A stretch of DNA of 52,077 nt from a virus. Numbering within the stretch: position 1 is the first letter of the stretch; each line of letters opens with the position of its first letter. Of this stretch, positions 2,669-52,077 are shown piece by piece. The notes under the pieces were generated by a model. It had not been told where the DNA came from. It was given only the letters and a program-made list of their open reading frames with translations, and did no database searches. The stretch spans positions 1 to 52,077 of the IMG/VR virus record IMGVR_UViG_3300010348_001338; one strand, 5' to 3'. Both the position numbers and the translations under genes were made by a program.

Positions 2669-3028
2669 ATGGAGTTTTCAGTTCAAGCGACGTCAAGGAA
2701 GATGGGAGCTGTTCGTCTTACAACGGAAGTCTGCTGTGGATCATTCTGCTGCAAGCTGTTCATTCAAAACAATCGGGTCTCCTGGCATCACGACTACGAC
2801 GGCTATCACGCCTGGTCCCAAGCTGATGGAGTAGATTCACACAAGGCTGCGTTGATCGAATTCAACACCTACAGAGCCCTCGTGAAGTCGACTCTCAGAG
2901 ACGCTACCCACGATCAGCTGATCACCCGGGCTACCAAGAGGAATCTCGAGTCCGCCTGGTTGAAGGAAGCGATGATTCGCCTCAGCAATCGTGGCGTTGA
3001 AATTCCCGAGCTGGAGGCGCTAGTATGA
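2669..3028 (+). CDS. Hypothetical protein
   Basis: 119-aa ORF with a GAGAGGAAA RBS. Its stop overlaps the next start (ATGA). Confidence 0.55.
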   Translation: MEFSVQATSRKMGAVRLTTEVCCGSFCCKLFIQNNRVSWHHDYDGYHAWSQADGVDSHKAALIEFNTYRALVKSTLRDATHDQLITRATKRNLESAWLKEAMIRLSNRGVEIPELEALV

Positions 3029-3660
3029 ACGCACCTACTTTCGCCTCACTTCAGAACAAGTATCGTCGTATCACCTTTGGGTGGGTCTTCTTCCTGCTCT
3101 TCGTTGGCACGGTCTTCCTGGCGAATTGGCTGGTGTCGAACGTAGGCGTGCAGCTGGAAGAGGGAGGGCCACACCTCTTGCCAATCTTTTCTCTCATGGT
3201 CCCAAGTGGTGTGCTGGCAGTTGGTCTGGGATTCACCTTACGTGATCTCGTTCAGCGCAACTTGGGGACAAGATACAGCGCGATTGCAGTGCTTATCGGT
3301 GCGGGACTTTCGGCCTTACTCTCGCCAGCTCTTGCACTTGCAAGTGGAGCTTCTTTCCTGATTTCAGAACTTCTGGATCTTGGGGTCTACACTCCGCTGC
3401 GGAAGAAGAACCTCATGGTGGCAGTCATTGCTTCGAATCTCGTGGGGTTGGTTGTTGACTCAATTCTCTTCTTGACTTTGGCCTTCGGGATGTCGTCGTT
3501 GACTTTCTTGCCAGGACAGATCATCGGCAAGCTTCTGATGACGATCCTCGTCTTGCCAATCGTGTGGGTGATTGATCGCCAAGATCGAGCAAGAGCTGTT
3601 GCCTGGGCACAGTTGAATCGTGTAATCGACGAGGAACTGGACCGGCGTTACAAAGCCTAG
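3025..3660 (+). CDS. yhhQ: YhhQ/DUF165-family queuosine-precursor (preQ0/preQ1) transporter-like membrane protein
   Basis: 211-aa polytopic membrane protein. The segments GFTLRDLVQRNLG, SELLDLGVYTPLRKK and SNLVGLVVDSILF resemble the conserved YhhQ/VUT-family helices. This is recognition from memory, not a search. Confidence 0.6.
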   Translation: MNAPTFASLQNKYRRITFGWVFFLLFVGTVFLANWLVSNVGVQLEEGGPHLLPIFSLMVPSGVLAVGLGFTLRDLVQRNLGTRYSAIAVLIGAGLSALLSPALALASGASFLISELLDLGVYTPLRKKNLMVAVIASNLVGLVVDSILFLTLAFGMSSLTFLPGQIIGKLLMTILVLPIVWVIDRQDRARAVAWAQLNRVIDEELDRRYKA

Positions 3661-7912: not shown

Positions 7913-9328
7913 ATGGGAGCATTCCAGGCTATCAAGAGCTTCTTCTCCTCGAAGGTCACGGTAGCTTCGTTGATACCTACCTGGCAATCAGGACAAGCTG
8001 AATTCTCGGAGACGAAGCTCGAGAATATGATCAAGCATGGGTGGCGTAGGAACGAGCTCATCTATTCGTGCATATCGAAGAAGGGCAAGACGGCCTCTCA
8101 GGTAGAGCTGAAGGTCTATGACAAAGCTTCCGGGGTTGAGATCCCGAACCACCCACTGAAGAGATTGATTCAGAAACCAAACCCAGAGATGTCAGAGTAC
8201 GATTTCTGGTACTCTATTCTCGTGTATCAGCAACTTTCAGGCAAAGCTCTCTTCGAGAAGGAACGAAGTGAACGAGGCAAGCTCATCGGCCTTTGGCCTC
8301 TACGACCCGATTGGGTGAAAGTGAAGATGCGCAATCGAGTTGAGATCGAGAAGTACATCTACGAGCCACCGGGTATCACGAATCCCCCAGAGCTAGGTCC
8401 CAAAGATGTCGTGGCGTTCCGTGTGTGGGACCCAGAAGGTCTCTTCTCTACCTGGCCACCTGTTGCTGTTGCTTCACGATCCGGGGATACAGACAACGAC
8501 ATGACAGAGCTCCTGAAAGTCTTCTTTCAAGAAGGCGGGACTCCCATGGGCATCATCACCTCGAAGTTACGCCTTCGTCAAGATGCAGTCGATGATATTC
8601 GGGCTAGATGGCGACAGCGATACGGTGGCTGGCGTAATTGGATGGACCCTGCAGTGCTCGATTCTGACGCCACCTATCAACGCATTGGTCTGACGTTCCG
8701 GGAAATGGGCTTTGAAGTTCTTGATGCACGGTCGGAAGCTCGCATCTGTATGGTCTTGGATGTCCCTCCGATCCTCGTTGGTGCGAAGATTGGCCTGGAT
8801 AGAGCTACGTACTCGAACTACGCTGAAGCGCGAAAGTCGTGGTGGGAAGATTCTCTCGTGCCTATCTACACAGATCTGCTCGATGTGGTCATCAATCAGA
8901 TCCTACCCGAGTTTGATGACAGTGATCGAATCACAGTCAAGTGGGACTTCTCGAGAGTCCCAGCTTTACAGGAGAGCCAAAACATCATCTGGAGCCGGGC
9001 TCGAGAGGGCTTCACAGCAGGTGCTATCACGGTCAATGAGTTTCGTGAGATGGTAGGCCTGAAGTCGTATGGCCCAGCTGGTGATGTCTTCTTGCGATCT
9101 CCACAGCAGCTTGCTATCCCGATCACACAGTCAACGAATCTCTCTGAGCCAATCGAGGGGGCAGCTCAGTTAGGCCACTTTGAAACGAAGGCTCTCTTAT
9201 CCTCTCCTTCAGATGAACGACGTAGGGAATTCGAGGAGAAGATGACTGAGAGGCTCGTTGAATTCTTCATTGCTCAGAAGACGCGTGTACTTCAGAAGGT
9301 GAAAGATGAACACCCCAACTCAGACTGA
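7913..9328 (+). CDS. Portal protein (HK97-family-like)
   Basis: 471 aa, directly after TerL with an AGGAGGGA RBS. Overall resemblance to HK97-type portals. Confidence 0.8.
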   Translation: MGAFQAIKSFFSSKVTVASLIPTWQSGQAEFSETKLENMIKHGWRRNELIYSCISKKGKTASQVELKVYDKASGVEIPNHPLKRLIQKPNPEMSEYDFWYSILVYQQLSGKALFEKERSERGKLIGLWPLRPDWVKVKMRNRVEIEKYIYEPPGITNPPELGPKDVVAFRVWDPEGLFSTWPPVAVASRSGDTDNDMTELLKVFFQEGGTPMGIITSKLRLRQDAVDDIRARWRQRYGGWRNWMDPAVLDSDATYQRIGLTFREMGFEVLDARSEARICMVLDVPPILVGAKIGLDRATYSNYAEARKSWWEDSLVPIYTDLLDVVINQILPEFDDSDRITVKWDFSRVPALQESQNIIWSRAREGFTAGAITVNEFREMVGLKSYGPAGDVFLRSPQQLAIPITQSTNLSEPIEGAAQLGHFETKALLSSPSDERRREFEEKMTERLVEFFIAQKTRVLQKVKDEHPNSD

Positions 9329-9455
9329 GATTGAAGTTGAAGTTGTACCCCCGAAAGCAAAACCGTCTCTCGTGCCGAATCGACATGATCGACGTCGTCA
9401 AGCTACTCTTCAAAAGAAGAGGATCAAAACCCTGCAAAAGCAGAAGAAAAGTTAG
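9306..9455 (+). CDS. Small basic protein (49 aa, below the ORF-track cutoff)
   Basis: Hand translation gives MNTPTQTEIEVEVVPPKAKPSLVPNRHDRRRQATLQKKRIKTLQKQKKS*. AGGTGAAAG precedes the ATG, and the ORF overlaps the portal 3' end. Confidence 0.4.
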   Translation: MNTPTQTEIEVEVVPPKAKPSLVPNRHDRRRQATLQKKRIKTLQKQKKS

Positions 9456-9467
9456 GGATCTGTGAAT

Positions 9468-9607
9468 CGAGGATCAAATTGGGCGATGTGAGGATAGTTA
9501 GGATATATATATTTATATATATATCCTAACTATCCTAACTATCCCCCAAGATCCTCGGTTTGATCCTATCCTTCAAAAGAGATAGGAAAACCTAACTAAC
9601 TATCCTC
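9468..9607. repeat. Intergenic iteron/palindrome element, copy 2 (inverted relative to copy 1)
   Basis: The same 21-bp arms lie at 9492-9512 and 9515-9535, with TT at the centre instead of AA. An extra TAACTATCC lies at 9536-9544. The reverse complement of the 28-nt box lies at 9580-9607. An outer stem pairs CGAGGATC (9468-9475) with GATCCTCG (9550-9557). Confidence 0.9.
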
Positions 9608-9635
9608 AAAACTATTCATCGTGGGAGATTGGTCC

Positions 9636-9664
9636 TTGATTTCAGGGATCGAATTTCGTATAAT
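9636..9664 (+). promoter_or_regulatory. Sigma70-type promoter
   Basis: TTGATT (9636-9641), 17 nt spacer, TATAAT (9659-9664). Confidence 0.7.
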
Positions 9665-9693
9665 GAGATAAAGATCTAGAAAAGGAGTTTCAG

Positions 9694-10143
9694 ATGCTGT
9701 GGACGAATCGTGGTAAGTTTCTGGTCTTGAGCTACGCCTTTCGTGGGGCAACTCGACCAACGAATTTCTATGTTGCGCTAGTCACTTCAGCTGTTGCACC
9801 GAACGCTGACATCAATACGCTTTCCCAGCTGACTGAGATTGCAGCCGGCAATGGCTACACTTCCGGGGGTTATCAATTGACACCTGGAGCGACTGATTTC
9901 GACAGCTTGGTTGAAAACGACACAGATGATAGATCTGAATTGCAGATCAAAGATATCGTGTGGACTGCTTCGGGAGGCAATCTACCAGCATCCGGAGGTG
10001 GTGCTCGATATGCTGTGCTCCTCACGGATGAAGCTGTAGTGGGCAATCGGCAAGTCATCTGTGCCTGGGATCTGGTGAGTGATCGAACAGTTTCAAGCGG
10101 GCAGCCTCTGACCCTGCAAAACTGCGAAATCAGAATCTCGTAA
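9694..10143 (+). CDS. Putative virion-associated beta-rich protein
   Basis: 149-aa ORF with an AAAGGAG RBS. It is the first gene of the promoter-bounded cassette between portal and MuF-like genes. Confidence 0.45.
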   Translation: MLWTNRGKFLVLSYAFRGATRPTNFYVALVTSAVAPNADINTLSQLTEIAAGNGYTSGGYQLTPGATDFDSLVENDTDDRSELQIKDIVWTASGGNLPASGGGARYAVLLTDEAVVGNRQVICAWDLVSDRTVSSGQPLTLQNCEIRIS

Positions 10144-17056: not shown

Positions 17057-17791
17057 ATGAATCAAGCTGAAGTTGAAAGCGTTTTGAAGACGTGGCCTGT
17101 ACGGGCCTGGAAGTGGCCCAGAATTGTGGCCAGTGTTTTACAGGAACGAGCAATGGCTCATGCGGATGATGTGTTTCCGAATTTCTGGGGCATTGCTGCC
17201 AACGGAGTTGCACTCTTACATCAGGACTATGGACGTACCGATGTCGTCCGGAATCAGTTGGTCAGAAGTTTTCTTCAGAGTAACTTTACTCATCTGTTGA
17301 TGCTCGATGTTGATCATATCCACCCGACGAACATTGTGCAGAGATTAGCTCGTTGGGTGATGCTGTATCCCGAAGTGAAAGTTGTAGGAGGGTTGAACTT
17401 TCGTCGGGGAGAGCCCTATGAGCCGTGCTGTTTCATCAAAGGGGACGATGGCAAGTTTTACGCTCCGGCTGAGTGGGAGCCAGGCTTGATCGAGGTCGAT
17501 GCCATTGGCACAGGGTCGATCCTCATTGCTCGGGAAGTTTTCGAGCAAATGGAGCCACCTTGGTTCTGGGTTGACTACTCTGGAGTTTGGGAAGATGTTT
17601 GGCCAGGGGAAGATATGGGTTTCTCGGCCAACTGTCGCAGGCTGGGAATCAAGATGTTCGTAGATACGACGACAACAAGCCCCCACATGATTGATGCTGT
17701 TGTAGATGAATCATCTTTTCGTAACTATCAGAAGGATCATCACTCAGTCGTCGCTGATTTCGAGACTATCAAGTCAGGGAGAAAGTCGTGA
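17057..17791 (+). CDS. Glycosyltransferase (GT-A fold, GT2-like)
   Basis: LLMLDVDHI (DxD-type motif) and GTGSILIAREVFEQMEPPWF. GGAGGG RBS. Confidence 0.6.
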   Translation: MNQAEVESVLKTWPVRAWKWPRIVASVLQERAMAHADDVFPNFWGIAANGVALLHQDYGRTDVVRNQLVRSFLQSNFTHLLMLDVDHIHPTNIVQRLARWVMLYPEVKVVGGLNFRRGEPYEPCCFIKGDDGKFYAPAEWEPGLIEVDAIGTGSILIAREVFEQMEPPWFWVDYSGVWEDVWPGEDMGFSANCRRLGIKMFVDTTTTSPHMIDAVVDESSFRNYQKDHHSVVADFETIKSGRKS

Positions 17792-18450
17792 TTACCCGTT
17801 GGTCTGACCTAAAGCTTCGACACGAGGGACAGACAGGGCTCGTCATCGGGAATGGGCCTAGCCTTTCGAGTATCCCCCTCAGCTTCCTTGGGAGATACCC
17901 GTCGATTGGCACCAATCGGATCTACCTGCTCGAAGGCTTCACTCCCACATACTACGTAGCCATCAACCCTCTCGTGATCGAGCAATCAGTTGAAGAAATC
18001 TCGGCGATTGAATGTGAAGCCAAGTTTATTCGTGCAGGCTTGCACACTCTGATTCCAGATACACTGCCAGTTCGATCGACCACTTTGCCAATTTTCAGTC
18101 GGGATCCTTCAAAGTGGGTCTATGAAGGCTTTACAGTCACGTACGTTGCCCTTCAGTTGGCCTTCTGGTTGGGATTCAGGACTGTCCTTCTTGTTGGAGT
18201 TGATCACAACTACAAATTCGAAGGGCAACCTAACGAAGAACACATCTTGAGTGGGCCAGATCCTAATCACTTTTCACCCAAGTACTTCCAAGGATCTCGA
18301 TGGCACAACCCTGACCTCGTCCAGTCCGAGATTTCGTATCAAATGGCCCAGACAGTCTTCACAACTGAAGGTCGTAGAATCATCAACATCACCCCTGGTT
18401 CAAAGCTTGATGTCTTCCCTAAAGAAGATTGGAGGGACTTCGATGACTGA
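17788..18450 (+). CDS. DUF115/MptE-like, GT42 (Cst-II)-like glycosyltransferase, possible nonulosonic-acid transferase
   Basis: VIGNGPSLSSIP...GTNRIYLL...YYVAINP and TYVALQLAFWLGFRTVLLVGVDHNY parallel the IAGNGPSL...CNQFYF and VAIALGYKEIYLSGIDFY blocks of Cst-II and Maf-type enzymes. This comparison is from memory. Confidence 0.5.
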   Translation: MITRWSDLKLRHEGQTGLVIGNGPSLSSIPLSFLGRYPSIGTNRIYLLEGFTPTYYVAINPLVIEQSVEEISAIECEAKFIRAGLHTLIPDTLPVRSTTLPIFSRDPSKWVYEGFTVTYVALQLAFWLGFRTVLLVGVDHNYKFEGQPNEEHILSGPDPNHFSPKYFQGSRWHNPDLVQSEISYQMAQTVFTTEGRRIINITPGSKLDVFPKEDWRDFDD

Positions 18451-19138
18451 TCCCAAAGTCTCCGCCATCGTATCAGCCTACTATGCTGCAGATTTTCTGC
18501 AAGCTCGCATTGAGAACTTGCTACAGCAGTCTCAGATCCCCGAGATTATCGTTGTCTGTCAAACAGGCAGTGCTGAGGCTAGGATAGCCCAGAAGTTCCT
18601 TGAAGATAACGTCTCTGAAGTAGCAGTCCTACTCACTCCTGACATCCCGACGATTTATGATGCGTGGAACAAAGCTATCCCGTATGCTCTGGGAGAGTAT
18701 CTCACGAGTGCTAACTCTGATGATCGTCTCAAACCGAGGGCTCTCGAAGAGATGACTGCAGCTTTAGATCGTCGCCCAAGCTACGCTGTAGTTTATGGAG
18801 ATCAGGAAATCGTTTCTGAGATTGATGGAGGGGTTGTTGGGAAGTTTGCTTGGCTCACAGGGGGCTTCAAGGAGCTGTTGAGAGGTTGCTTCGTAGGCCC
18901 GATGCCAATCTGGCGTAAGTCCCTTCACGAGAAGTATGGACTCTTCGATCCTACGTATCGCATTGCTGGGGATTACGAGTTCTGGCTTCGAATAGCCTCG
19001 AAAGGTGAGAAGTTCCTCCACTTCTCTGCCGTTGTCGGCTCTTATCTTCAGAGGAATGATAGCCTCGAACATCGTGAACCCCTCAGAACTGTTTGGGAGA
19101 CAGCCCGTGCTCGAAGTCTGTATCGAAAGGAGTCGTGA
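18443..19138 (+). CDS. Glycosyltransferase family 2
   Basis: ATG 18443 follows GGAGGG. VSAIVSAYYAADFLQ...IIVV...YDAWNKAI...SANSDDRL is the classic GT2 N-terminal pattern. The longer track ORF from 18251 overlaps the upstream gene. Confidence 0.7.
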   Translation: MTDPKVSAIVSAYYAADFLQARIENLLQQSQIPEIIVVCQTGSAEARIAQKFLEDNVSEVAVLLTPDIPTIYDAWNKAIPYALGEYLTSANSDDRLKPRALEEMTAALDRRPSYAVVYGDQEIVSEIDGGVVGKFAWLTGGFKELLRGCFVGPMPIWRKSLHEKYGLFDPTYRIAGDYEFWLRIASKGEKFLHFSAVVGSYLQRNDSLEHREPLRTVWETARARSLYRKES

Positions 19139-32956: not shown

Positions 32957-33023
32957 CACATTTACAACTTGGGCGGGCGGCGTGGTGGGGACACGCGCGT
33001 TTTGAGGTGAAAGACCCTCGCAA

Positions 33024-33048
33024 TCAGGTTCGAATCCTGACCCGCCAA
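33024..33048 (+). other. tRNA 3'-end-like fragment (T-arm plus acceptor 3' strand)
   Basis: TCAGG TTCGAAT CCTGA CCCGCCA A. Upstream sequence does not fold into D and anticodon arms. Confidence 0.5.
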
Positions 33049-33090
33049 TATGTAGTAAATCGGAAGATATGATTGAAACAAGGAGGCAAC

Positions 33091-34861: not shown

Positions 34862-35506
34862 ATGGAAACCGAAGAACGAATGCGACAGATGGACGGAACT
34901 GAAGGACACGAGGATTTCATGCTCATCGGTCAGGAGCTGATGACGAAAGATCAACTTGACGATCTGATAGAGCAGGTGAAAGTTCAGTACAAACGTTGGC
35001 CGACTTGGTGTCCACGAGAGTGGAAAGCTACTCATCGACGTTCCTGGACGTGGGAGTTCGGTTATACGAGACAAGGTCTCCCGACTTGCTATCAGGTCGA
35101 TGTCAAGATTCAAGAAATCGCAGACCTCTCTCAGATTTGCAGACACGAGAGCACGCACCTTACCGGACGAACGGTCGACGTAGCTGAATCAGCAGTTTGC
35201 AATCAGTGCTTAAGCACGATCTGGTGGATCCCGCTCGGGACCGAAACTTTAGCTTCTCTGCAGTCGAAGATCCAGGTTGGCCAGACAGTCCTGGTCTCAG
35301 GGAAGACTTGGGAAGGTTGGTTCCCCACTCTCAAAGGTTGGGATGGACGCTTCATCATCCTCGAAGCTTTGATGCCTTCGGGACGTAAAGATTTCAGAGT
35401 TGATTGGCACAAGATCAAGAAGATTATCTGTAATGATCTCGAAGCTAACAGGATTGAGCACCTGCACGCAACTGGGAAACTCTCCTGGGAACAAGTAATG
35501 AACTAG
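34862..35506 (+). CDS. Early protein with C-terminal GKTWEGW beta-barrel domain
   Basis: 214 aa with an AAAAGGAGAG RBS. The C-terminus reads VLVSGKTWEGWFPTLKGWDGRFIILEA. Confidence 0.65.
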   Translation: METEERMRQMDGTEGHEDFMLIGQELMTKDQLDDLIEQVKVQYKRWPTWCPREWKATHRRSWTWEFGYTRQGLPTCYQVDVKIQEIADLSQICRHESTHLTGRTVDVAESAVCNQCLSTIWWIPLGTETLASLQSKIQVGQTVLVSGKTWEGWFPTLKGWDGRFIILEALMPSGRKDFRVDWHKIKKIICNDLEANRIEHLHATGKLSWEQVMN

Positions 35507-37849: not shown

Positions 37850-38668
37850 ATGAATGAGCTTATTCAAGAGGATCTGATCAGCTTTGCATACGACCTTCAG
37901 AAGGTAGCGATCTATCATCGTGCTCCACTGACGGTCGAGGTTCGGGGTCTCGAGCCTATCACTGTAGGTGAGGGCTTGGGTGGGTTCTCCTGGACGATCT
38001 TTCAGCGCGGTGAAGATTGTACAGCTTGTGGACTCTGTTGCCACCTTTGCAGACGTCGCACTTGGTGGTGGCATGAAAGTGATCCACGGCCTGACGGAGT
38101 TGGCGTGCCTATTGATGTGAAGATCAATGGCTTGCAGACAACCTTCTTCTATCACATGACTTCATCTGGCAAGAGATTCGAGAAGTGTGATTTCTTGATC
38201 CCTGCGTACACAGTCGAAGGCTCGAATCGCGGGCAAGGTCAGCTTGGGTCTGATCTTCATCTGGACAATGATCCCAATCGATTGGTCGACATCCACGGCA
38301 ACCCGATGTGGTTCTGCTCGATTCAATTCAAGGGAAAGCCTCTGCACTGTAAGTCAGATCCTTTCCTCTCAGTTCACAAAGTGCGAACTGCTCGAGGGGT
38401 TGTAAATCTCCTTTCACGTCGTCTACCTTCACGAAACTGGCGTTGGCCCAAGTGCCCGATTGATGTTGCGAACGAGCCCTTCACTCCCGAGATTGCTCAG
38501 CTCGATCTTGAGAATTTTCAACAGCTGTACAACAGCTTCGGTAACTTGCCTGGCTCCCAGATGATCGAGGGTTTGCAGATCTGGGAAGCAGAAGCAAGCA
38601 AGGCCCTTGAAGGACACGCCCCGTCAGAGAACATCTTCTTCGCAGATGTCTTCTCTCGAGTCGAGTAA
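37850..38668 (+). CDS. YkgJ-family CxxCxxCC cysteine-cluster protein
   Basis: CTACGLCC, then KCDFL and CSIQFKGKPLHCKSDPF, follow the two-block layout of the CxxCxxCC (UPF0153) family. GAGGAGAG RBS. Confidence 0.55.
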   Translation: MNELIQEDLISFAYDLQKVAIYHRAPLTVEVRGLEPITVGEGLGGFSWTIFQRGEDCTACGLCCHLCRRRTWWWHESDPRPDGVGVPIDVKINGLQTTFFYHMTSSGKRFEKCDFLIPAYTVEGSNRGQGQLGSDLHLDNDPNRLVDIHGNPMWFCSIQFKGKPLHCKSDPFLSVHKVRTARGVVNLLSRRLPSRNWRWPKCPIDVANEPFTPEIAQLDLENFQQLYNSFGNLPGSQMIEGLQIWEAEASKALEGHAPSENIFFADVFSRVE

Positions 38669-38725: not shown

Positions 38726-38796
38726 GCGGAGATCGCCAAGTGGTAAGGCAGCTAGTTCCAACTAGCCTATCGATGGTTCGATTCCATCTCTCCGCT
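38726..38796 (+). tRNA. tRNA-Trp(CCA)-like, 71 nt, with a non-canonical 6-nt anticodon loop
   Basis: Hand fold: GCGGAGA TC GCCA AGTGGTA AGGC A GCTAG TTCCAA CTAGC CTATC GATGG TTCGATT CCATC TCTCCGC T. The acceptor stem (7 bp) and T-arm are canonical. No encoded CCA. Confidence 0.75.
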
Positions 38797-38860
38797 CTGC
38801 TCTACTATTCGATGATCTTTCTGATAAGCTAGCCCTCTTTGAGGGAGTGAGAAGGTCAAG

Positions 38861-44583: not shown

Positions 44584-44609
44584 ACCTTATACTTCAAGGA
44601 GTCACTGAA

Positions 44610-45038
44610 ATGCCAGGTCAACCTCCCGAATTCAAACAGCTTGGCCAGAAAGGTACGGAGTTCAAAGGCTTCGATACTTTCGACGCCCCGAAACTCACAA
44701 CTGAAGTCACCTTCAAGACGAACGAATTTACTTCCCTATGCCCTGTGACTGGGCAGCCGGATTATCAAACTATCACGATCTCTTATCTGCCAGGTGAGAA
44801 GTGTCTCGAATCTAAGAGCTTGAAGCTCTACTTGATGACCTTCCGTAATCGAGGAGCATTCTGTGAAGCTCTTGCAGCTGAAATCTGTGATGCTCTCTTC
44901 TCAGCGTTGAACCCGAAATATCTCTCAGTCAAGATCAATCAGAACCCCCGGGGAGGGATTGGTATCACGGCTGAAGCAGAGAAATCGAGGGAAGATGAGC
45001 AGTGGGGTCGTTTATCATTTAGTGGCGAGGTAGAATGA
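44610..45038 (+). CDS. queF: NADPH-dependent 7-cyano-7-deazaguanine (preQ0) reductase QueF, unimodular type
   Basis: Catalytic-Cys context FTSLCPVTGQPD, intact QueF motif ESKSLKLY, and PRGGI near the C-terminus. Confidence 0.85.
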   Translation: MPGQPPEFKQLGQKGTEFKGFDTFDAPKLTTEVTFKTNEFTSLCPVTGQPDYQTITISYLPGEKCLESKSLKLYLMTFRNRGAFCEALAAEICDALFSALNPKYLSVKINQNPRGGIGITAEAEKSREDEQWGRLSFSGEVE

Positions 45039-45736
45039 AAGCTGTAACTCTCTTATCTGGTGGTCTTGATAGCACGACTGTCACTGCAATGGCAGTTCGT
45101 CGTCACGGCGCTTCGAATGTTCTCGCTCTTTCAGTGGATTATGGACAACGTCATCAACGAGAGCTCTCATCTGCCAAACAGATTGCAGAGCGTCTGAAGA
45201 TCCATCATCGTATCCTTCACCTGCCGTCTCATCTCTTTCGTGGGGCTGACTCTACGTTGATCAATCCCACTCTTGAGACTCCTCACAAGACGTACAGACA
45301 GCTGGAGCTTGATCTTGGGGTCTCTCCGACGTACGTGCCCTTTCGAAACGCCATTCTGATCTCAATGGCTTCTGCGATTGCACTGATCGAGGAGGCTGAA
45401 GAAGTCTGGATAGGCACTCACGCTGAGGATGCACGGAATTGGGCCTACCCAGATTGCACACCGGAATTCAATGGTGCAATGTCGAATGCGATCTACGTCG
45501 GGACGTACATGAAGGTTCGACTCGTTACTCCCCTTCAGTGGATGATGAAGAAGGATGTCGTACGTCAAGCCTACAAAGTCGATACCCCCGTCGAGCTTAC
45601 CTGGAGTTGCTACGAAGGTGGCACCGTTGCTTGTGGGAAGTGCCCAACTTGCTGTGAACGTCTAGCAGCTTTCAATGCAGTTGGGTACGTCGATCCGATC
45701 CCGTACATTGACCGGGAGTTCTGGAAGCAAGCTTGA
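45035..45736 (+). CDS. queC: 7-cyano-7-deazaguanine synthase QueC
   Basis: PP-loop LLSGGLDST and C-terminal zinc site C...CGKCPTCCERL. Start is coupled to the queF stop (ATGA). Confidence 0.85.
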   Translation: MKAVTLLSGGLDSTTVTAMAVRRHGASNVLALSVDYGQRHQRELSSAKQIAERLKIHHRILHLPSHLFRGADSTLINPTLETPHKTYRQLELDLGVSPTYVPFRNAILISMASAIALIEEAEEVWIGTHAEDARNWAYPDCTPEFNGAMSNAIYVGTYMKVRLVTPLQWMMKKDVVRQAYKVDTPVELTWSCYEGGTVACGKCPTCCERLAAFNAVGYVDPIPYIDREFWKQA

Positions 45737-45742
45737 TCCTAG

Positions 45743-45787
45743 ATCTAGGGAGGCAAGCAGTTTCCTTGCCTCCCTAGATTTCTCTCT
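45743..45787 (+). terminator. Intrinsic terminator after queC (15-bp stem)
   Basis: ATCTAGGGAGGCAAG (45743-45757) pairs with CTTGCCTCCCTAGAT (45765-45779), followed by TTCTCTCT. Confidence 0.65.
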
Positions 45788-45802
45788 GAAAGCTATTATA
45801 AT
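45775..45802 (+). promoter_or_regulatory. Degenerate copy of the phage promoter overlapping the terminator's 3' arm
   Basis: TAGATT (45775-45780), 16 nt spacer (TCTCTCTGAAAGCTAT), TATAAT (45797-45802). The spacer matches the class A spacer minus one T. Confidence 0.55.
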
Positions 45803-45820
45803 AGCATGAAAGGAGACATC

Positions 45821-46687
45821 ATGAAGACGGCGTTAATCCTGCCAATCCCTAATCTGACACTAGCCGCTGGAAGATCATACCACTTGATCTTGAATCATCT
45901 GCTCGACTCCTTGACATATCGTTTGTTCTACACAGTTGAAGCTCTGAATGGTGGGTATGTAATCCTAGACAACTCTGCTCACGAGCACGGTAGTGGGGGA
46001 TCGATCTCCACTATCCTGCAGAACGGTCAGAAGCTGAAGGCGAAGGAGATCGTACTCCCTGATACACTCTTTGATGCCGATGTTACCATAGATCGAATCT
46101 CCGAGGCCATGGATTTCATACTGACAGAAGGCTCTGAGGTGTACAGTGAATATCAGCCACGTCTCTCCCTGGTAGCTCAGGGTAGCACCTACCCAGAGTG
46201 GGTCCGGTGCTTCAATGCTCTTCTACGAGCATATCTCTATCGCAAAGATCGATTTGACAGTCTAGGCTGCCCGGGTATCACGTTCAGTGTTTCGAAGGAC
46301 TACGATACGATGGGTGAATTCCCGGGAGGCTTGAAACGAATGCTCGAAGAGCATGTCCTGCCAGCGTCGACAGAGTTCGGGTTCCCGATTCATCTCCTAG
46401 GCTGGGGGAGAGCTCTTCACAACTATCAACCTATAGCTCGTGAATACGGGCATCTAATTCGGTCGATTGATTCGGCGAAGCCGATTGTGTATGGTTTGAA
46501 TGGCATCTTGCTTGATGAAACTCAGCTACATAAGACTCCCGAGTATCCCAAAAGATCACCCTCCTTCTTCTTTGACGCCATCCCCCTCGAGAGAATGTCA
46601 GCTGTAATTCATAACATCGATGTCTTCGATACCTTGGCCGGATCAGAGGGGAGTCTTTATGTTCGACCATTTGACGAAGTGCTATGA
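45821..46687 (+). CDS. Candidate DpdA-like DNA-guanine transglycosylase (context-based; family not verified)
   Basis: AAGGAG lies 5 nt before ATG 45821; the ATG at 45806 lies at or before the predicted transcription start. 288 aa, sitting between queFC and the DNA polymerase. The only motif hint is YVILDNSAHEHG. Confidence 0.35.
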   Translation: MKTALILPIPNLTLAAGRSYHLILNHLLDSLTYRLFYTVEALNGGYVILDNSAHEHGSGGSISTILQNGQKLKAKEIVLPDTLFDADVTIDRISEAMDFILTEGSEVYSEYQPRLSLVAQGSTYPEWVRCFNALLRAYLYRKDRFDSLGCPGITFSVSKDYDTMGEFPGGLKRMLEEHVLPASTEFGFPIHLLGWGRALHNYQPIAREYGHLIRSIDSAKPIVYGLNGILLDETQLHKTPEYPKRSPSFFFDAIPLERMSAVIHNIDVFDTLAGSEGSLYVRPFDEVL

Positions 46688-49403
46688 ATGTCCACTAGCT
46701 GAGCATAACTGCCCTAAAGTTTCTGCTGTAGGTCCTGAGAATGCCGAAATCCTGATCATCGGAGAAGCACCTGGGTCCAACGAGGTTATGCAGAGAACTC
46801 CCTTCGTAGGGGAGTCTGGGAAGCTTCTTCGATCAGTTCTTGAAATGGCAGGGGTTGATCCCAAGAAATGCTTCATCACGAACGCTGTGATCTGTCGCCC
46901 ACCCAACAACGATACTCCACGGCCTGAGGCTTGGCTAGCCTGCAGGGAACGTCTGATTGAGGAAATCAAGCATGTTCGCCCTAAGAAAATCCTGACTGTA
47001 GGCGGAGTTGCCTACTCAGCTTTGATGGGCTCTCCTGTCAGTCTCAGCATTACGAAGAATCGTGGGATTGGGCAGATGTTCAAGCTCGATTGGAACGTGC
47101 TTGATGAAGTTGTGGATGTTGACGATCATCTAGAGTCGTTTCTAGTTCCGACACTGCACCCAGCTGCTGTTTTGAGGAACCCGGATCAGTTTCGGGAGAT
47201 CGCAGAAGATATCCAGAAGCTAGCATCCCAGTCAGCACCACTACCCTTCCCAGACATCCAGACCTTCGTTTCACGATCGATCGAGGAAGCTCTAGGGTTC
47301 TTTGATGTCATCAGTGATGCTTCGATGGTTTCGATAGATTTGGAGACGACTGGACGGGATCCAATAACTGATGAAATCGTTACTCTGGGTCTCGGTGTCA
47401 AGAGCTCTGAGAAGGAGAATACAGGGTATTCATTCATCATTCGACGACGTCATCTCGACAGCATTGAAGTTCAGACTCGGTTACTTGAGTTCTTCTTCAA
47501 CTCTAACGCTCGCAAAGCTTTTCATAACCTGAAGTTCGATCTCCAATTTCTCGAAGTCTACTTTCATCAGAGATTGAGGATCAAGAACGTTACAGATACG
47601 ATGTTGATGCACTACGCTCTCGATGAACGTACGGGCAACTCCGTCCCTGGACATGGTCTGAAGAGCCTTGCTCGACGATACGATATCCCGGACTACCACT
47701 TTGCTTTCGACAACTTCTGGAATAATGTGAAAGCTATCGTCGAGGAGAGAGGCTGGAAAGGCCCGATTTGGGATATCGATGATGATCGCATCGAATGGGG
47801 CAAGTATTACGAGTATCACGGTCTAGATTGCTACATCACAGTCAGTCTCTGCGAAGATCTGTCAACTGAACTCGTTGAAGAGTCCCCCGAGCTTCTGAAT
47901 CTAGTCGACGATATCCTAGTCCCAGGCACTGTAGCCCTGGCCGAGATTGAGTTGAGGGGAACGAAGATAGATCCCGAGTATCTGAGGCAGCAGAAGGTAA
48001 TCCTTGAAAAAGAGATTGCAGAGCTTCGATCAATCTTTCTTGAAGCTGCTCGTGAGTTAGGCCTGCACGAAGATCCGATAGACTTTGATGTGGGCAGTGT
48101 CGCTGATATTGATAGATTAGCTAGTGTTTCAGAATCCCCGGAGACAGTTTGGGAGCTGTTTGGAAGTTATCGTCGAGCTATCAATCTCAATAAGCCCAGA
48201 CGAATTTCACGGGAGAAGACAGCGTTGCTCAAGCTTGCTGAAGATGCAGGTTTGTACAGCCCAGGACGAAAGTTCAATCCCTCTTCTACGGCAGATCAGA
48301 AGAAGTTCCTAGGACTGCTCGGTGTGCAAGCTGATATGACAGACAAGGACTCCCTACAGCTCATCCTTGAGGATCCTAGGCTGACAGACAAAACGAAATT
48401 CTTGATTGAGAAGATTTCGGAGTATCGACAGAAGACGAAATTTCTATCAACGTACATCATCGGTCTACTCGAGAAAGCTGATTCCCAAGGTTTCGTTCAC
48501 CCAGACTACCTGATCTTCGGCACGGCTACAGGACGTCTCTCCTGTCAAGAGCCTAATCTCCAGAACATCCCTACGTTGGCTGGGCCTATCGTGAAGAATG
48601 GGTTCATCCCCTCGGAGCCTGGGTGGGCGATCCTGAACGTTGACTACTCGCAGCTAGAACTTCGTGTTGCTGCTCTTCTAAGTCAGGATGCAAATCTAAT
48701 CTCGGCCTATCAGAATGAAGAAGATATCCATATCAAAGTAGCCGCTGCGATGTTCAAGAAGCCTCCCGAACAGATCACGAAGTTTGAGCGTTATCTTGCC
48801 AAGTACGTTGACTTTGGAGTAATCTATGGTCGAAGTGCTGAAAGTCTCGTTGATGGCTGGGAGATGGAGTACTACGTTAAGCAAGGTGGCAAACGTTGGA
48901 CACTCCCTGAAGCAGAAGTCTTCCTCAACTCATTCTTGAATGAGTTTGGAGGTCTCAAAGAGTTTATTAGCAAGCAGCATGATCTCGTGATTCAACAGCA
49001 CTACATTGAAACCTTGATGGGACGACGTAGACGATTTCCCTATATCTCCTGGAGCAACAAGAATTCAGTTCAGAGACAGGCTGTCAATAGCCCGATTCAA
49101 TCCTTAGCATCTGATTTGACGTTCACAGCCCTGACAAGACTCCACGAATCCCTAGATCCCGAGAAGTGTCGAATCCTATTCACTGTACACGACTCTATCG
49201 TATTTGAAGTTCGTCTGGATGCATTGTCTGAGAGTCTCACAAAGATCAAGTATGAGATGACTCAGAATATCCCAGTTTCATCGAACGTGCCTTTTCGAGC
49301 TGATGCTGAAGTTGGCTTGAGATGGGGAGAAGTTGAGAAAGTTACTCAGGAGATGTTAGAATGTCCAGAACGTATCCTCTCGACTGGTGGCTCGAAAGAT
49401 TAG
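46659..49403 (+). CDS. Family A DNA polymerase with N-terminal family-4 uracil-DNA-glycosylase-like domain and 3'-5' exonuclease
   Basis: UDG4 motifs IIGEAPG, FVGESGKLL and LHPAAVLRNP. Exo motif VSIDLETTG. Pol motifs DYSQLELRVAA, RRRFP...VNSPIQ and FTVHDSIVFE. ATG 46659 follows AGAGGGGAG. Confidence 0.85.
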   Translation: MFDHLTKCYECPLAEHNCPKVSAVGPENAEILIIGEAPGSNEVMQRTPFVGESGKLLRSVLEMAGVDPKKCFITNAVICRPPNNDTPRPEAWLACRERLIEEIKHVRPKKILTVGGVAYSALMGSPVSLSITKNRGIGQMFKLDWNVLDEVVDVDDHLESFLVPTLHPAAVLRNPDQFREIAEDIQKLASQSAPLPFPDIQTFVSRSIEEALGFFDVISDASMVSIDLETTGRDPITDEIVTLGLGVKSSEKENTGYSFIIRRRHLDSIEVQTRLLEFFFNSNARKAFHNLKFDLQFLEVYFHQRLRIKNVTDTMLMHYALDERTGNSVPGHGLKSLARRYDIPDYHFAFDNFWNNVKAIVEERGWKGPIWDIDDDRIEWGKYYEYHGLDCYITVSLCEDLSTELVEESPELLNLVDDILVPGTVALAEIELRGTKIDPEYLRQQKVILEKEIAELRSIFLEAARELGLHEDPIDFDVGSVADIDRLASVSESPETVWELFGSYRRAINLNKPRRISREKTALLKLAEDAGLYSPGRKFNPSSTADQKKFLGLLGVQADMTDKDSLQLILEDPRLTDKTKFLIEKISEYRQKTKFLSTYIIGLLEKADSQGFVHPDYLIFGTATGRLSCQEPNLQNIPTLAGPIVKNGFIPSEPGWAILNVDYSQLELRVAALLSQDANLISAYQNEEDIHIKVAAAMFKKPPEQITKFERYLAKYVDFGVIYGRSAESLVDGWEMEYYVKQGGKRWTLPEAEVFLNSFLNEFGGLKEFISKQHDLVIQQHYIETLMGRRRRFPYISWSNKNSVQRQAVNSPIQSLASDLTFTALTRLHESLDPEKCRILFTVHDSIVFEVRLDALSESLTKIKYEMTQNIPVSSNVPFRADAEVGLRWGEVEKVTQEMLECPERILSTGGSKD

Positions 49404-51317: not shown

Positions 51318-51854
51318 ATGGCTACTTTAGATCTCAGTCGTCGACGTGCAATTGCCCTGGCTATGCATTTCCAGGGAGTCTCATACTCAGGGGCCCACAG
51401 TCTTGAACAGGCAGAGGATCTCTGGGTCAAAACGCTTCTGGATCAAGGTCTCACGAAGGACCAAGTGGAACGTGTGATCAAGGTAGATACCGACTCGTTC
51501 GAGAAAGAGATTCTGAAAGGTGAATTCTCGGATGAAGTCAGCTCTATTGCTGATCCGGCCCTCCTGGCAATGAAAGCAGCAACCCCTGAAGAGATCGAAG
51601 CTTCCCGAACGAAACGATCCCGGGCAAGCAAACCTCAAGGGGAAGCTCCCAGCCAGAGTCCAAAAGCGGAAGCTGTCACAGAAAGCCTGCCTGTAGGTAC
51701 GAGGATTACGGTGCAAGGCAAATCCTGGGAAGGCTTCATCGCGACCATCGAGGGTGAGGAAGGATCCCACTATCTGGTTGCTACACCCACGAAGAAAGGC
51801 TCGATCTGGCGTGGCAAGATTCGCAAATCCGCGGTGATGGGAGTGATAAGCTAG
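51318..51854 (+). CDS. Early protein with C-terminal GKSWEGF beta-barrel domain
   Basis: 178 aa with a GAAGGAGAAG RBS. The C-terminus reads ITVQGKSWEGFIATIEGEEGSHYLV. Confidence 0.65.
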   Translation: MATLDLSRRRAIALAMHFQGVSYSGAHSLEQAEDLWVKTLLDQGLTKDQVERVIKVDTDSFEKEILKGEFSDEVSSIADPALLAMKAATPEEIEASRTKRSRASKPQGEAPSQSPKAEAVTESLPVGTRITVQGKSWEGFIATIEGEEGSHYLVATPTKKGSIWRGKIRKSAVMGVIS

Positions 51855-51950: not shown

Positions 51951-52077
51951 AAGGGAGATCATAAAAAATGGGGAAAGATACCATGGAAGATGGGGGACCC
52001 ACAAATGACGAGAAGGGTGGGATGTCCCATTTGGTTTACTTGACTCTCGAAGTCGAGATTCGGGAGATCTTACATTC
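51951..52077. repeat. Terminal direct repeat, identical to 1..127
   Basis: See the feature at 1..127. It contains the RBS and the first 110 nt of ORF 18..683. Confidence 0.95.

Follow-up and report, generated by a model that had tools for sequence, protein, structure and literature searches.

The window analysed here is the whole of IMG/VR virus record IMGVR_UViG_3300010348_001338, a stretch of 52,077 nucleotides. Between positions 44,610 and 46,687 it carries queF, queC and a 288-residue open reading frame (ORF), the last of which encodes a homologue of the DpdA3 family of transglycosylases related to tRNA-guanine transglycosylase (TGT). QueC converts 7-carboxy-7-deazaguanine (CDG) to 7-cyano-7-deazaguanine (preQ0) and QueF reduces preQ0 to 7-aminomethyl-7-deazaguanine (preQ1); the three genes would represent the late half of a predicted pathway for 7-deazaguanine modification of DNA. 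They run directly into a gene that joins a domain resembling uracil-DNA glycosylase (UDG) to a family A DNA polymerase (PolA). These features, together with those elsewhere in the window that bear on them, are listed in Table 1.

Table 1. Positions of the genes and elements discussed in the text
Feature	Positions	Strand	Remarks
Divergent Vut_1/YhhQ-family membrane protein, candidate importer of 7-deazaguanine precursors	3025-3660	+	PF02592
Cys-rich (CxxCxxCC) DpdM/YkgJ-like paralogue	37850-38668	+	7 kb upstream; module membership uncertain
tRNA gene	38726-38797	+	Rfam 53.9 bits; directly after the DpdM-like ORF
11-bp GC-rich hairpin with GAAA loop	44558-44583	+	upstream of queF; closes the preceding DUF669 gene
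queF, unimodular NADPH-dependent preQ0 reductase (preQ0 to preQ1)	44610-45038	+	142 aa; TIGR03139, PF14489
queC, 7-cyano-7-deazaguanine synthase (CDG to preQ0)	45035-45736	+	233 aa; TIGR00364, PF06508
17-bp hairpin and U-rich tract, terminator-like	45741-45790	+	between queC and dpdA3
Palindrome GCTATTATAATAGC holding a TATAAT hexamer (45797-45802)	45792-45805	+	possible -10 element, putative
dpdA3-like gene, predicted DNA guanine transglycosylase	45821-46687	+	288 aa; zinc-less TIM barrel, TGT/DpdA superfamily
UDG-like / 3'-5' exonuclease / family A DNA polymerase gene	46620 or 46659 to 49403	+	PF03167, PF01612, PF00476

The queF-queC pair

The queF product passes the curated cut-off of TIGR03139 (117.6 bits against 86.9; PF14489 at 3.1e-25) and has both the catalytic Cys context, FTSLCPVTGQPD (CPVTGQPD), and the sequence ESKSLKLY, which fits the E(S/L)K(S/A)hK(L/Y)(Y/F/W) NADPH motif; cut-off, catalytic Cys and motif agree in identifying it as a QueF. 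It is 47% identical to the QueF of Streptococcus phage Dp-1 and 43% identical to that of Cellulophaga phage phiSM, and an AAGGAG lies upstream of the gene at 44596-44601. The queC product likewise passes the cut-off of its family model (TIGR00364, 176.6 bits against 150.3), matches PF06508 at 4.4e-57 over model positions 1-209 of 210, and shows the SGGLDS PP-loop and the C-terminal Cys cluster CGKCPTCC that are expected of a QueC. An ATGA overlap (gaATGAaa, 45035-45038) joins the two genes and points to translational coupling. An earlier reading of the sequence (the original prediction) had given the motifs and the overlap of both genes, and these are borne out in full.

The pair is bracketed 5' and 3' by strong hairpins. 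The upstream hairpin has a folding energy of -23.8 kcal/mol (z -4.75) and the stem that follows queC, at 45741-45781, one of -28.5 kcal/mol (z -4.77); in each case 0 of 200 shuffled sequences were as stable. The downstream stem is followed by UUUCUCUCU, and is kept in independent assemblies of the same phage, with one mismatch in L006. The terminator/promoter composite that had been proposed for the interval after queC is half upheld: the 17-bp hairpin and U-rich tract resemble a terminator, but a consensus scan found no sigma-70-like promoter on the + strand between queC and dpdA3 and no -35 element is evident, so that the sigma-70 promoter is left unsupported. As an aside, in L006 (L006:9216-9989), an independent assembly of this phage, one base is missing from the stop codon of queC (TGA to T-A), so that QueC runs on through the hairpin region and reaches 257 residues instead of 233; the cause is either strain variation or an error of assembly.

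The 288-residue protein is a DpdA3 homologue

An AAGGAG at 45810-45815 stands 5 nt before the ATG at 45821, the start on which public gene calls (P0001) agree; an alternative ATG at 45806 would give 293 residues and has no Shine-Dalgarno sequence. The protein matches no Pfam or NCBIfam model even at E<=10, and searches of the PDB sequences with the ORF itself (phmmer) or with the family profile (hmmsearch) returned noise only. In this sense the original prediction was correct to call the family unrecognised; the family has nevertheless been published, as DpdA3 (PMC10516641).

The connection to DpdA3 is made through phages. A tblastn search of GenBank phages found matches to hypothetical proteins in Cellulophaga phages phiST, phi13:1 and phi19:2, in the Bacillus BSP7/BSTP group and in Weizmannia phage Youna2. 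The match to phiST CGPG_00065 (E 1e-7) covers 91% of the query at 23% identity, and when an alignment of 118 family sequences was compared to CGPG_00065 by hhalign the probability was 99.6% (E 3.4e-24, 243 columns). Proteins of the CGPG_00065 type were described as DpdA3 by Hutinet 2023 (PMC10516641), and DpdA3 is regarded as the enzyme that inserts the 7-deazaguanine in phiST, Campylobacter phages and Flavobacterium phage immuto_2-6A, in all of which 100% of G is replaced (PMC10516641).

The predicted structure leads to the same family. AlphaFold2, run on the 118-sequence alignment, gave a TIM barrel of eight alternating strands and helices at high confidence (predicted local distance difference test, pLDDT, 94.4; predicted TM-score, pTM, 0.91). 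The best match to this model in the PDB by Foldseek is 7ui4, the DNA preQ0 insertase DpdA (E 7.7e-7), followed by more than 40 TGT and archaeosine TGT (arcTGT) entries, among them Zymomonas TGTs and archaeosine TGTs (TMq 0.5-0.56); scores close to these, at E about 3e-5, were also obtained for a few unrelated TIM barrels. In the viral structure library BFVD the best match is again phiST CGPG_00065 (E 1.4e-15, TM 0.69/0.76). The PADLOC model of DpdA matches 13 of the 118 family members (best E 3e-5) and is the sole model matched by more than one member. The 288-residue protein is therefore a homologue of the DpdA3 family of TGT-like transglycosylases. It occupies the position at which a DpdA had been anticipated, and the structural comparison that had been proposed as a check has returned the TGT/DpdA (PF01702-like) fold. 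The alternative that had been kept in reserve, a novel type of inserting enzyme, is refuted because the protein is TGT-like and belongs to a subfamily described in 2023.

Three Asp residues, D50, D81 and D217, are invariant among the 118 family sequences, and the model puts them where beta3 (46-50), beta4 (76-78) and beta8 (213-218) end on the C-terminal side. In bacterial DpdA (bDpdA), the corresponding place on beta3 holds D95 as general acid/base, that on beta4 D130 for base recognition and that on beta8 D256 as nucleophile (PMC10164549). Topology and motif order thus make it likely that D50, D81 and D217 are the equivalents of D95, D130 and D256, short of proof because no comparison with TGT or DpdA1 by sequence alone reached significance. 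The link to TGT is supported instead by the fold, by the PADLOC DpdA matches and by the published HHpred result for the phiST homologue. The large insertion between beta8 and alpha8 of TGT and DpdA is absent; about 70 residues follow beta8 in the 288-residue protein.

A complete genome without the early pathway genes

The window begins and ends with the same 127 bp (an exact direct repeat at 1-127 and 51951-52077). Because both ends carry this repeat the assembly is circularly closed, and we take the genome to be complete at about 51.95 kb; other samples yielded this phage in independent assemblies of 52,046 and 52,091 bp. The completeness matters because the original prediction claimed that FolE, QueD and QueE are absent genome-wide. 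A Pfam scan of all window ORFs of at least 60 aa found none of the three families. QueF itself gave a weak T-fold cross-match to GTP cyclohydrolase I, and there was no other match of this kind. Hidden Markov models (HMMs) of QueD, QueE and FolE built from relatives, searched with the HMMER filters off through all six frames and across the circular junction, found nothing below E = 0.3. With the genome closed and every search empty the claim holds. A search for a preQ1 riboswitch near queF and yhhQ likewise gave none at E<=1.

The phage has no close cultured relative, given that a megablast search of the region against GenBank phages found no match. Nor does the host reveal itself through the family: DpdA3 is nearly absent from cellular genomes, and a scan of the genomes of 185,579 species gave just two contigs from metagenome-assembled genomes (MAGs), both phage-like themselves. 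The family as a whole is large, comprising 4,951 representative clusters at E<=1e-3.

Graded loss of pathway genes among relatives

We gathered 66 viral-contig loci and several metagenome contigs with homologues, used HMMs of local construction to classify them, and merged loci into non-redundant groups at 95% DpdA3 identity. Gene content was counted in the 42 non-redundant groups that show at least 5 kb of upstream sequence. In every one of these 42 informative groups deazaguanine genes stand beside the DpdA3 homologue. The full pathway (QueF, QueC, QueD, QueE and FolE) is present in 28 groups, and the full pathway minus QueF in six. Four groups have QueF, QueC and YhhQ (the window, L012/13, L018 and L020), three have QueF and YhhQ only (L004, L016/52 and L017/56), and one has QueD, QueE and FolE only. 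The late-steps-only layout of the window had been called unusually minimal. At 4/42 it is indeed uncommon; it is neither unique nor the smallest, since three groups make do with QueF and YhhQ.

Neighbour-joining trees of DpdA3 and of PolA place the reduced loci in one subclade, where they are interleaved with full-pathway genomes. The nearest neighbour of the window, L003, has the full pathway, and the sister of L016/L056 is L002, a locus with the full pathway and YhhQ besides. This interleaving implies that the early genes have been lost more than once.

Loss of the early genes is accompanied by the presence of YhhQ. The gene occurs in 7/7 groups without QueD, QueE and FolE and in 1/35 groups with them (Fisher p = 3e-7, uncorrected for phylogeny). 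Phages that encode DpdA only are held to depend on host or imported precursors, and YhhQ is known from some phages (PMC6884629), although in the survey of 2019 it was uncorrelated with any phage group (PMC6884629). The correlation within the present clade strengthens the proposal that precursors are salvaged. In the window the YhhQ-like protein belongs to the Vut_1/YhhQ family (PF02592, 51.7 bits against a cut-off of 27.2).

The same data bear on an explanation of a different kind, namely that queF, queC and the YhhQ-like gene are auxiliary metabolic genes that raise host tRNA queuosine, and that the 288-residue ORF has an unrelated role in replication. Phages with que genes and no recognised DpdA were once read in this way (PMC6884629), and the hairpins on either side of queF-queC give the pair the look of an insulated cassette. 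Against it, both the sequence profile and the fold of the 288-residue ORF mark it as a DpdA3 homologue, and deazaguanine genes flank its homologues in 42/42 groups; tgt, queA and queG were not found in the window genome, and its only solid tRNA does not have a GUN anticodon. That tRNA, directly downstream of the Cys-rich ORF, has an odd 6-nt anticodon loop (UUCCAA), for which ARAGORN gives a two-base 'anticodon cc'; it is read most simply as a CCA/Trp-like tRNA and not as a queuosine-accepting GUN tRNA. A second ARAGORN call, tRNA-Thr (GGT) at 32970-33049 (+), scores just 18.6 bits in Rfam, with the tRNA-Sec model (E 0.22), and was discarded as a probable false positive. All told, we find such an auxiliary role in tRNA queuosine highly improbable.

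Some module genes of the relatives are absent from the window. A small ORF adjoins DpdA3 in 18 loci (for example L002:9039-9314, L003:8553-8855 and L005:8871-9269) and gives consistent sub-threshold matches to DUF1599, 'nucleotide modification associated domain 1' (E 0.03-0.06). L005:6878-7393 is a MazG-like gene (E 5e-4). L002:4812-5471, beside QueF, encodes a GNAT acetyltransferase, which could mean an acylated preQ1 derivative in that phage.

DpdM and the identity of the end product

Directly upstream of DpdA3, 28 of the loci (17 non-redundant groups) encode a protein of 228-295 aa. All 17 groups are QueF-positive, and none of the 7 QueF-negative groups has the gene. The protein has eight invariant Cys residues, including CxxxCxxCC (examples are L002:9311-9997, L005:9266-10000 and L016:9315-10004), and its profile matches phiSM CEPG_00054 by hhalign at 99.3% (E 5e-20). 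CEPG_00054 is DpdM, a DUF3109/YkgJ-like dPreQ1 N-methyltransferase with experimental support (dPreQ1 being the deoxynucleoside of preQ1), and the phiSM gene order QueF-DpdM-DpdA is that of the window's relatives. DpdM is present in every reduced-class relative except the window, where the canonical position holds no DpdM: queC is followed by the hairpin only.

The window does possess a possible counterpart in the Cys-rich ORF of Table 1. Compared profile to profile by hhalign, its family (A4) matches the DpdM of the relatives (A3) at 97.7% (E 2.1e-12) with the eight Cys conserved, and PF03692 is found in its homologue P0124. The TLDYxPxE block that is invariant in DpdM is, however, replaced; direct hhalign of the ORF to phiSM DpdM reaches 14.6% and BLASTP against the same protein is empty; the ORF matches nothing in Pfam, NCBIfam or by tblastn; and an AlphaFold2 model from four sequences is unusable (pLDDT 53). 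On present resemblance the ORF may act on preQ1 in DNA, a putative role. The ORF is kept at the same syntenic position in L078.

These observations bring into focus a variant of the proposed system in which only the end product differs: dPreQ1 would be modified further, for instance to its methylated form mdPreQ1 by the product of the Cys-rich ORF, or DpdA3 would insert preQ0 or another derivative. The association of DpdM with QueF-positive groups, every other reduced relative included, speaks for the variant, as does the profile match of the Cys-rich family to DpdM; moreover, the sole characterised phage with DpdA3 and QueF has the formylated derivative fdPreQ1, not dPreQ1. The window, on the other hand, lacks DpdM at the canonical position, its paralogue has lost the TLDYxPxE block and shows no significant direct match to phiSM DpdM, the model of the paralogue is of no help, and neither a DpdN-like formyltransferase nor an acetyltransferase was found in the genome. 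We judge the variant unlikely, yet of real weight. The original prediction of dPreQ1 as the end product is accordingly retained in part: the module that would make it is supported, but the product itself is less certain, given the DpdM homologues beside DpdA3 in relatives and the divergent paralogue in the window. On the simplest view the window phage would end at dPreQ1; mdPreQ1 or some other derivative is a serious alternative.

Linkage of DpdA3 to the DNA polymerase

The end of dpdA3 overlaps the start of the UDG-PolA gene by 29-68 nt, depending on which start is used, which links the two genes translationally and confirms the overlap described in the original prediction. The arrangement is general. 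DpdA3 followed by PolA, overlapping or abutting, is found in 31/49 non-redundant groups, and the two genes are no more than 600 nt apart in 43/49. The same order is present in the cultured B. subtilis phage BSP7 (L079, MH707430.1), where the DpdA3 homologue BSP7_057 (8932-9720), annotated as 'hypothetical protein', overlaps the start of DNA polymerase I and lies downstream of QueC-QueD-QueE-FolE. The BSTP relatives likewise carry an unannotated homologue, and sister records of BSP7_057 are mis-annotated as integrase, NadR or polynucleotide kinase. In the BSTP phages and in Weizmannia phage Youna2, too, the homologue stands directly upstream of PolA.

So close a linkage, an almost invariable in-register fusion of the two genes, raises the possibility that DpdA3 is a base-exchange enzyme that acts on pools of nucleosides or nucleotides, or else in a complex with PolA at the replication fork. 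If true, pool- or fork-level exchange would explain why replacement is 100% in DpdA3 phages; as a proposition we consider it improbable. In its specifically pre-replicative form, DpdA3 would swap the base of (deoxy)nucleosides or nucleotides in free form, and the co-translated PolA would then incorporate the modified dNTP. Gene order in the 49 groups and BSP7, and the proximity of DpdA3 to the polymerase in phiST, are in keeping with this, as are the absence from DpdA3 of the large, nucleic-acid-binding beta8/alpha8 insertion and the zinc site of TGT/DpdA, the complete replacement in characterised DpdA3 phages (unusual for post-replicative exchange), the ADG (7-amido-7-deazaguanine) nucleoside in the cytoplasm of CP220-infected cells, and the MazG-like genes that accompany DpdA3 in phiST and L005. 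The window itself, though, is without MazG, dGTPase, nucleotide kinase or any other pool-remodelling enzyme, members of the family that have been studied biochemically all use polynucleotides as substrates, post-replicative insertion is the route favoured in the DpdA3 paper (PMC10516641), and adjacency may reflect nothing beyond co-expression with the replication module. For these reasons we hold pre-replicative exchange to be quite improbable, and return to insertion into DNA.

A model for the module and the evidence that bears on it

We consider it probable that the window encodes a reduced, precursor-salvaging phage system for 7-deazaguanine modification of DNA, built around a DpdA3-family transglycosylase and with dPreQ1 as its predicted product. 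In outline, the queuosine pathway of the host would supply CDG, and external preQ0 or preQ1 may enter by way of the YhhQ-like transporter. QueC and QueF would convert the salvaged intermediate to the free base preQ1; host-made CDG as the point of entry would explain why QueC has been retained. DpdA3 would then exchange guanine in DNA for preQ1 by the double-displacement chemistry of TGT and DpdA, with D217 as predicted nucleophile, D50 as general acid/base and D81 in base recognition, and the resulting dPreQ1 DNA would resist G-dependent restriction. Without the early steps, how much guanine is replaced should vary with the precursor that the host or the environment supplies.

Several lines of evidence are consistent with the preQ1 branch of this scheme. 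Phage QueFs of the window's type reduce free preQ0, as judged by complementation (PMC10516641); the DNA of Dp-1 carries dPreQ1, and phiSM QueF complements an E. coli delta-queF strain (PMC6884629, PMC10516641). The smallest relatives, with only QueF, YhhQ, DpdM and DpdA3 (L004, L016, L056), imply that free preQ0 enters the pathway and that DpdA3 handles preQ1 in this clade. These smallest relatives argue strongly for preQ1 as the predicted substrate of DpdA3 in the window's clade. More generally, YhhQ tracks the loss of early genes and DpdM tracks QueF, which speaks for free preQ1 as the base used by these DpdA3 enzymes.

The oligonucleotide composition of the window offers circumstantial support. 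Palindromes that contain G are not avoided (GATC occurs 491 times), while TTAA is the most depleted of the 256 tetramers, with 8 sites and a Markov observed/expected ratio of 0.18 (the next lowest being 0.73), or about 0.04 relative to base composition. TTAA is a site that G modification is unable to shield, and its depletion suggests that the host restricts there. Among relatives (L003, L005, L018, L066) the depletion of TTAA is lineage-specific, with zero TTAA in L005, L018 and L066. Most relatives are 2-3.6-fold enriched for GATC with respect to base composition, unlike L061 (IMGVR_UViG_3300033141_005088), a QueF-less locus with QueC, QueD, QueE, FolE and DpdA3, which has zero GATC in 20.7 kb.

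A number of points weigh against the model. Attempts by the authors of the DpdA3 paper to reconstitute DpdA3 in E. coli failed (PMC10516641), and the characterised DpdA3 phages carry dDG (7-deazaguanine), dADG (the deoxynucleoside of ADG) or fdPreQ1, none of them plain dPreQ1 (PMC10516641). The CxCx2Cx22H zinc site is absent from the window enzyme, which has two Cys only (C130, C150), and no such motif is conserved in the family alignment; with both the zinc site and the beta8/alpha8 insertion missing, DpdA3 is a stripped-down barrel. Alignment of the family by hhalign to E. coli TGT, to phiSM DpdA1 and to a 119-sequence DpdA1 profile was not significant, a comparison that lacked power because even the control of DpdA1 against TGT was weak. 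The YhhQ-like protein scores 41.6 bits on TIGR00697, the queuosine precursor transporter, over residues 99-167, which is below the NCBIfam equivalog cut-off of 50.95 (relatives have YhhQ proteins that reach about 108 bits); its substrate is for that reason uncertain, and the importer envisaged at 3025 stands as a candidate. Lastly, in four groups early genes lie downstream of PolA, and both the YhhQ correlation and the class counts derive partly from truncated contigs, for which absence elsewhere is unprovable precisely because early genes can sit beyond PolA. Among the reduced-class loci a whole genome is in hand for the window alone.

Relation to known systems

The closest parallel in product branch is the phage with DpdA3, QueC and QueF described in PMC10516641, which shares preQ1-branch modification of DNA with the window. 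It has the whole de novo pathway and DpdN, whereas the window is without FolE, QueD, QueE and DpdN and has in addition the YhhQ-like transporter gene. Cellulophaga phage phiST provides the homologous transglycosylase (23% identity, TM about 0.7), likewise next to a polymerase gene. There CGPG_00065 is accompanied by FolE, QueD, QueE, DpdL and a MazG-like gene, and dDG replaces all G; phiST has the early half of the pathway only, without QueC or QueF, and the window has the opposite, late half.

Streptococcus phage Dp-1 and Cellulophaga phage phiSM possess the closest QueF and QueC among cultured phages and would share the predicted product dPreQ1. They differ in combining DpdA1 with a complete preQ0 pathway and QueF, with or without DpdM, and their DNA has dPreQ1 or mdPreQ1 at 0.1-2% of G. 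In its proposed use of host-made or imported precursors the window resembles the DpdA-only phages, such as Salmonella phage 7-11 and Mycobacterium phage Orion (PMC6884629); these, however, have DpdA1 and no biosynthetic gene, where the window has QueC, QueF and DpdA3. The bacterial Dpd system (DpdA/DpdB/DpdC; 7ui4; PMC10164549) has a TIM barrel with three invariant Asp at beta3, beta4 and beta8, as does the model of the 288-residue protein. bDpdA is nonetheless a much larger enzyme of 413 aa with four insertions and a CxCx2Cx22H zinc site, needs the ATPase DpdB, and modifies <0.1% of G (PMC10164549), in contrast to the 288 residues of the window enzyme, which has no zinc site and no DpdB partner.

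DpdA3, QueC, QueF, YhhQ and DpdM have all been published previously (PMC6884629, PMC10516641), and because every enzyme family here has already been described the locus does not represent a new mechanism. What is new is the late-steps-only DpdA3 module in a complete genome, the graded reductions within a single phage clade in which YhhQ tracks the loss of early genes, and the tight linkages of DpdA3 to PolA and of DpdM to DpdA3. All three characterised DpdA3 phages encode early steps, and the window is the mirror image of phiST, which encodes early steps only. The graded series suggests that phages have repeatedly outsourced precursor synthesis to the host or the environment. The minimal modules (QueF, YhhQ and DpdA3, with or without QueC and DpdM) and the cultured phage BSP7 are practical starting points for work on the substrate specificity of DpdA3. 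With some 4,950 representative clusters in the family, guanine modification of phage DNA may be more widespread in environmental viromes than one would judge from collections of isolates, which would have consequences for sequencing and for restriction-based methods.

Other features of the window

Two further features of the genome deserve mention. A family 2 (GT2) glycosyltransferase gene (PF00535, 5.8e-9) lies at 17057-17791 (+), between capsid and tail genes, and is adjoined by a glycosyltransferase-like ORF at 18251-19138 (+); the capsid/tail interval is an unusual place for both. In addition, four otherwise unrelated ORFs on the + strand (18-683, 751-1233, 34862-35506 and 51318-51854) end in the motif V.V.GK(S/T)WEG(W/F)..T, examples being EVTVEGKSWEGWIATV and ITVQGKSWEGFIATI; the shared C-terminus looks like a small repeated domain, here regarded as putative.

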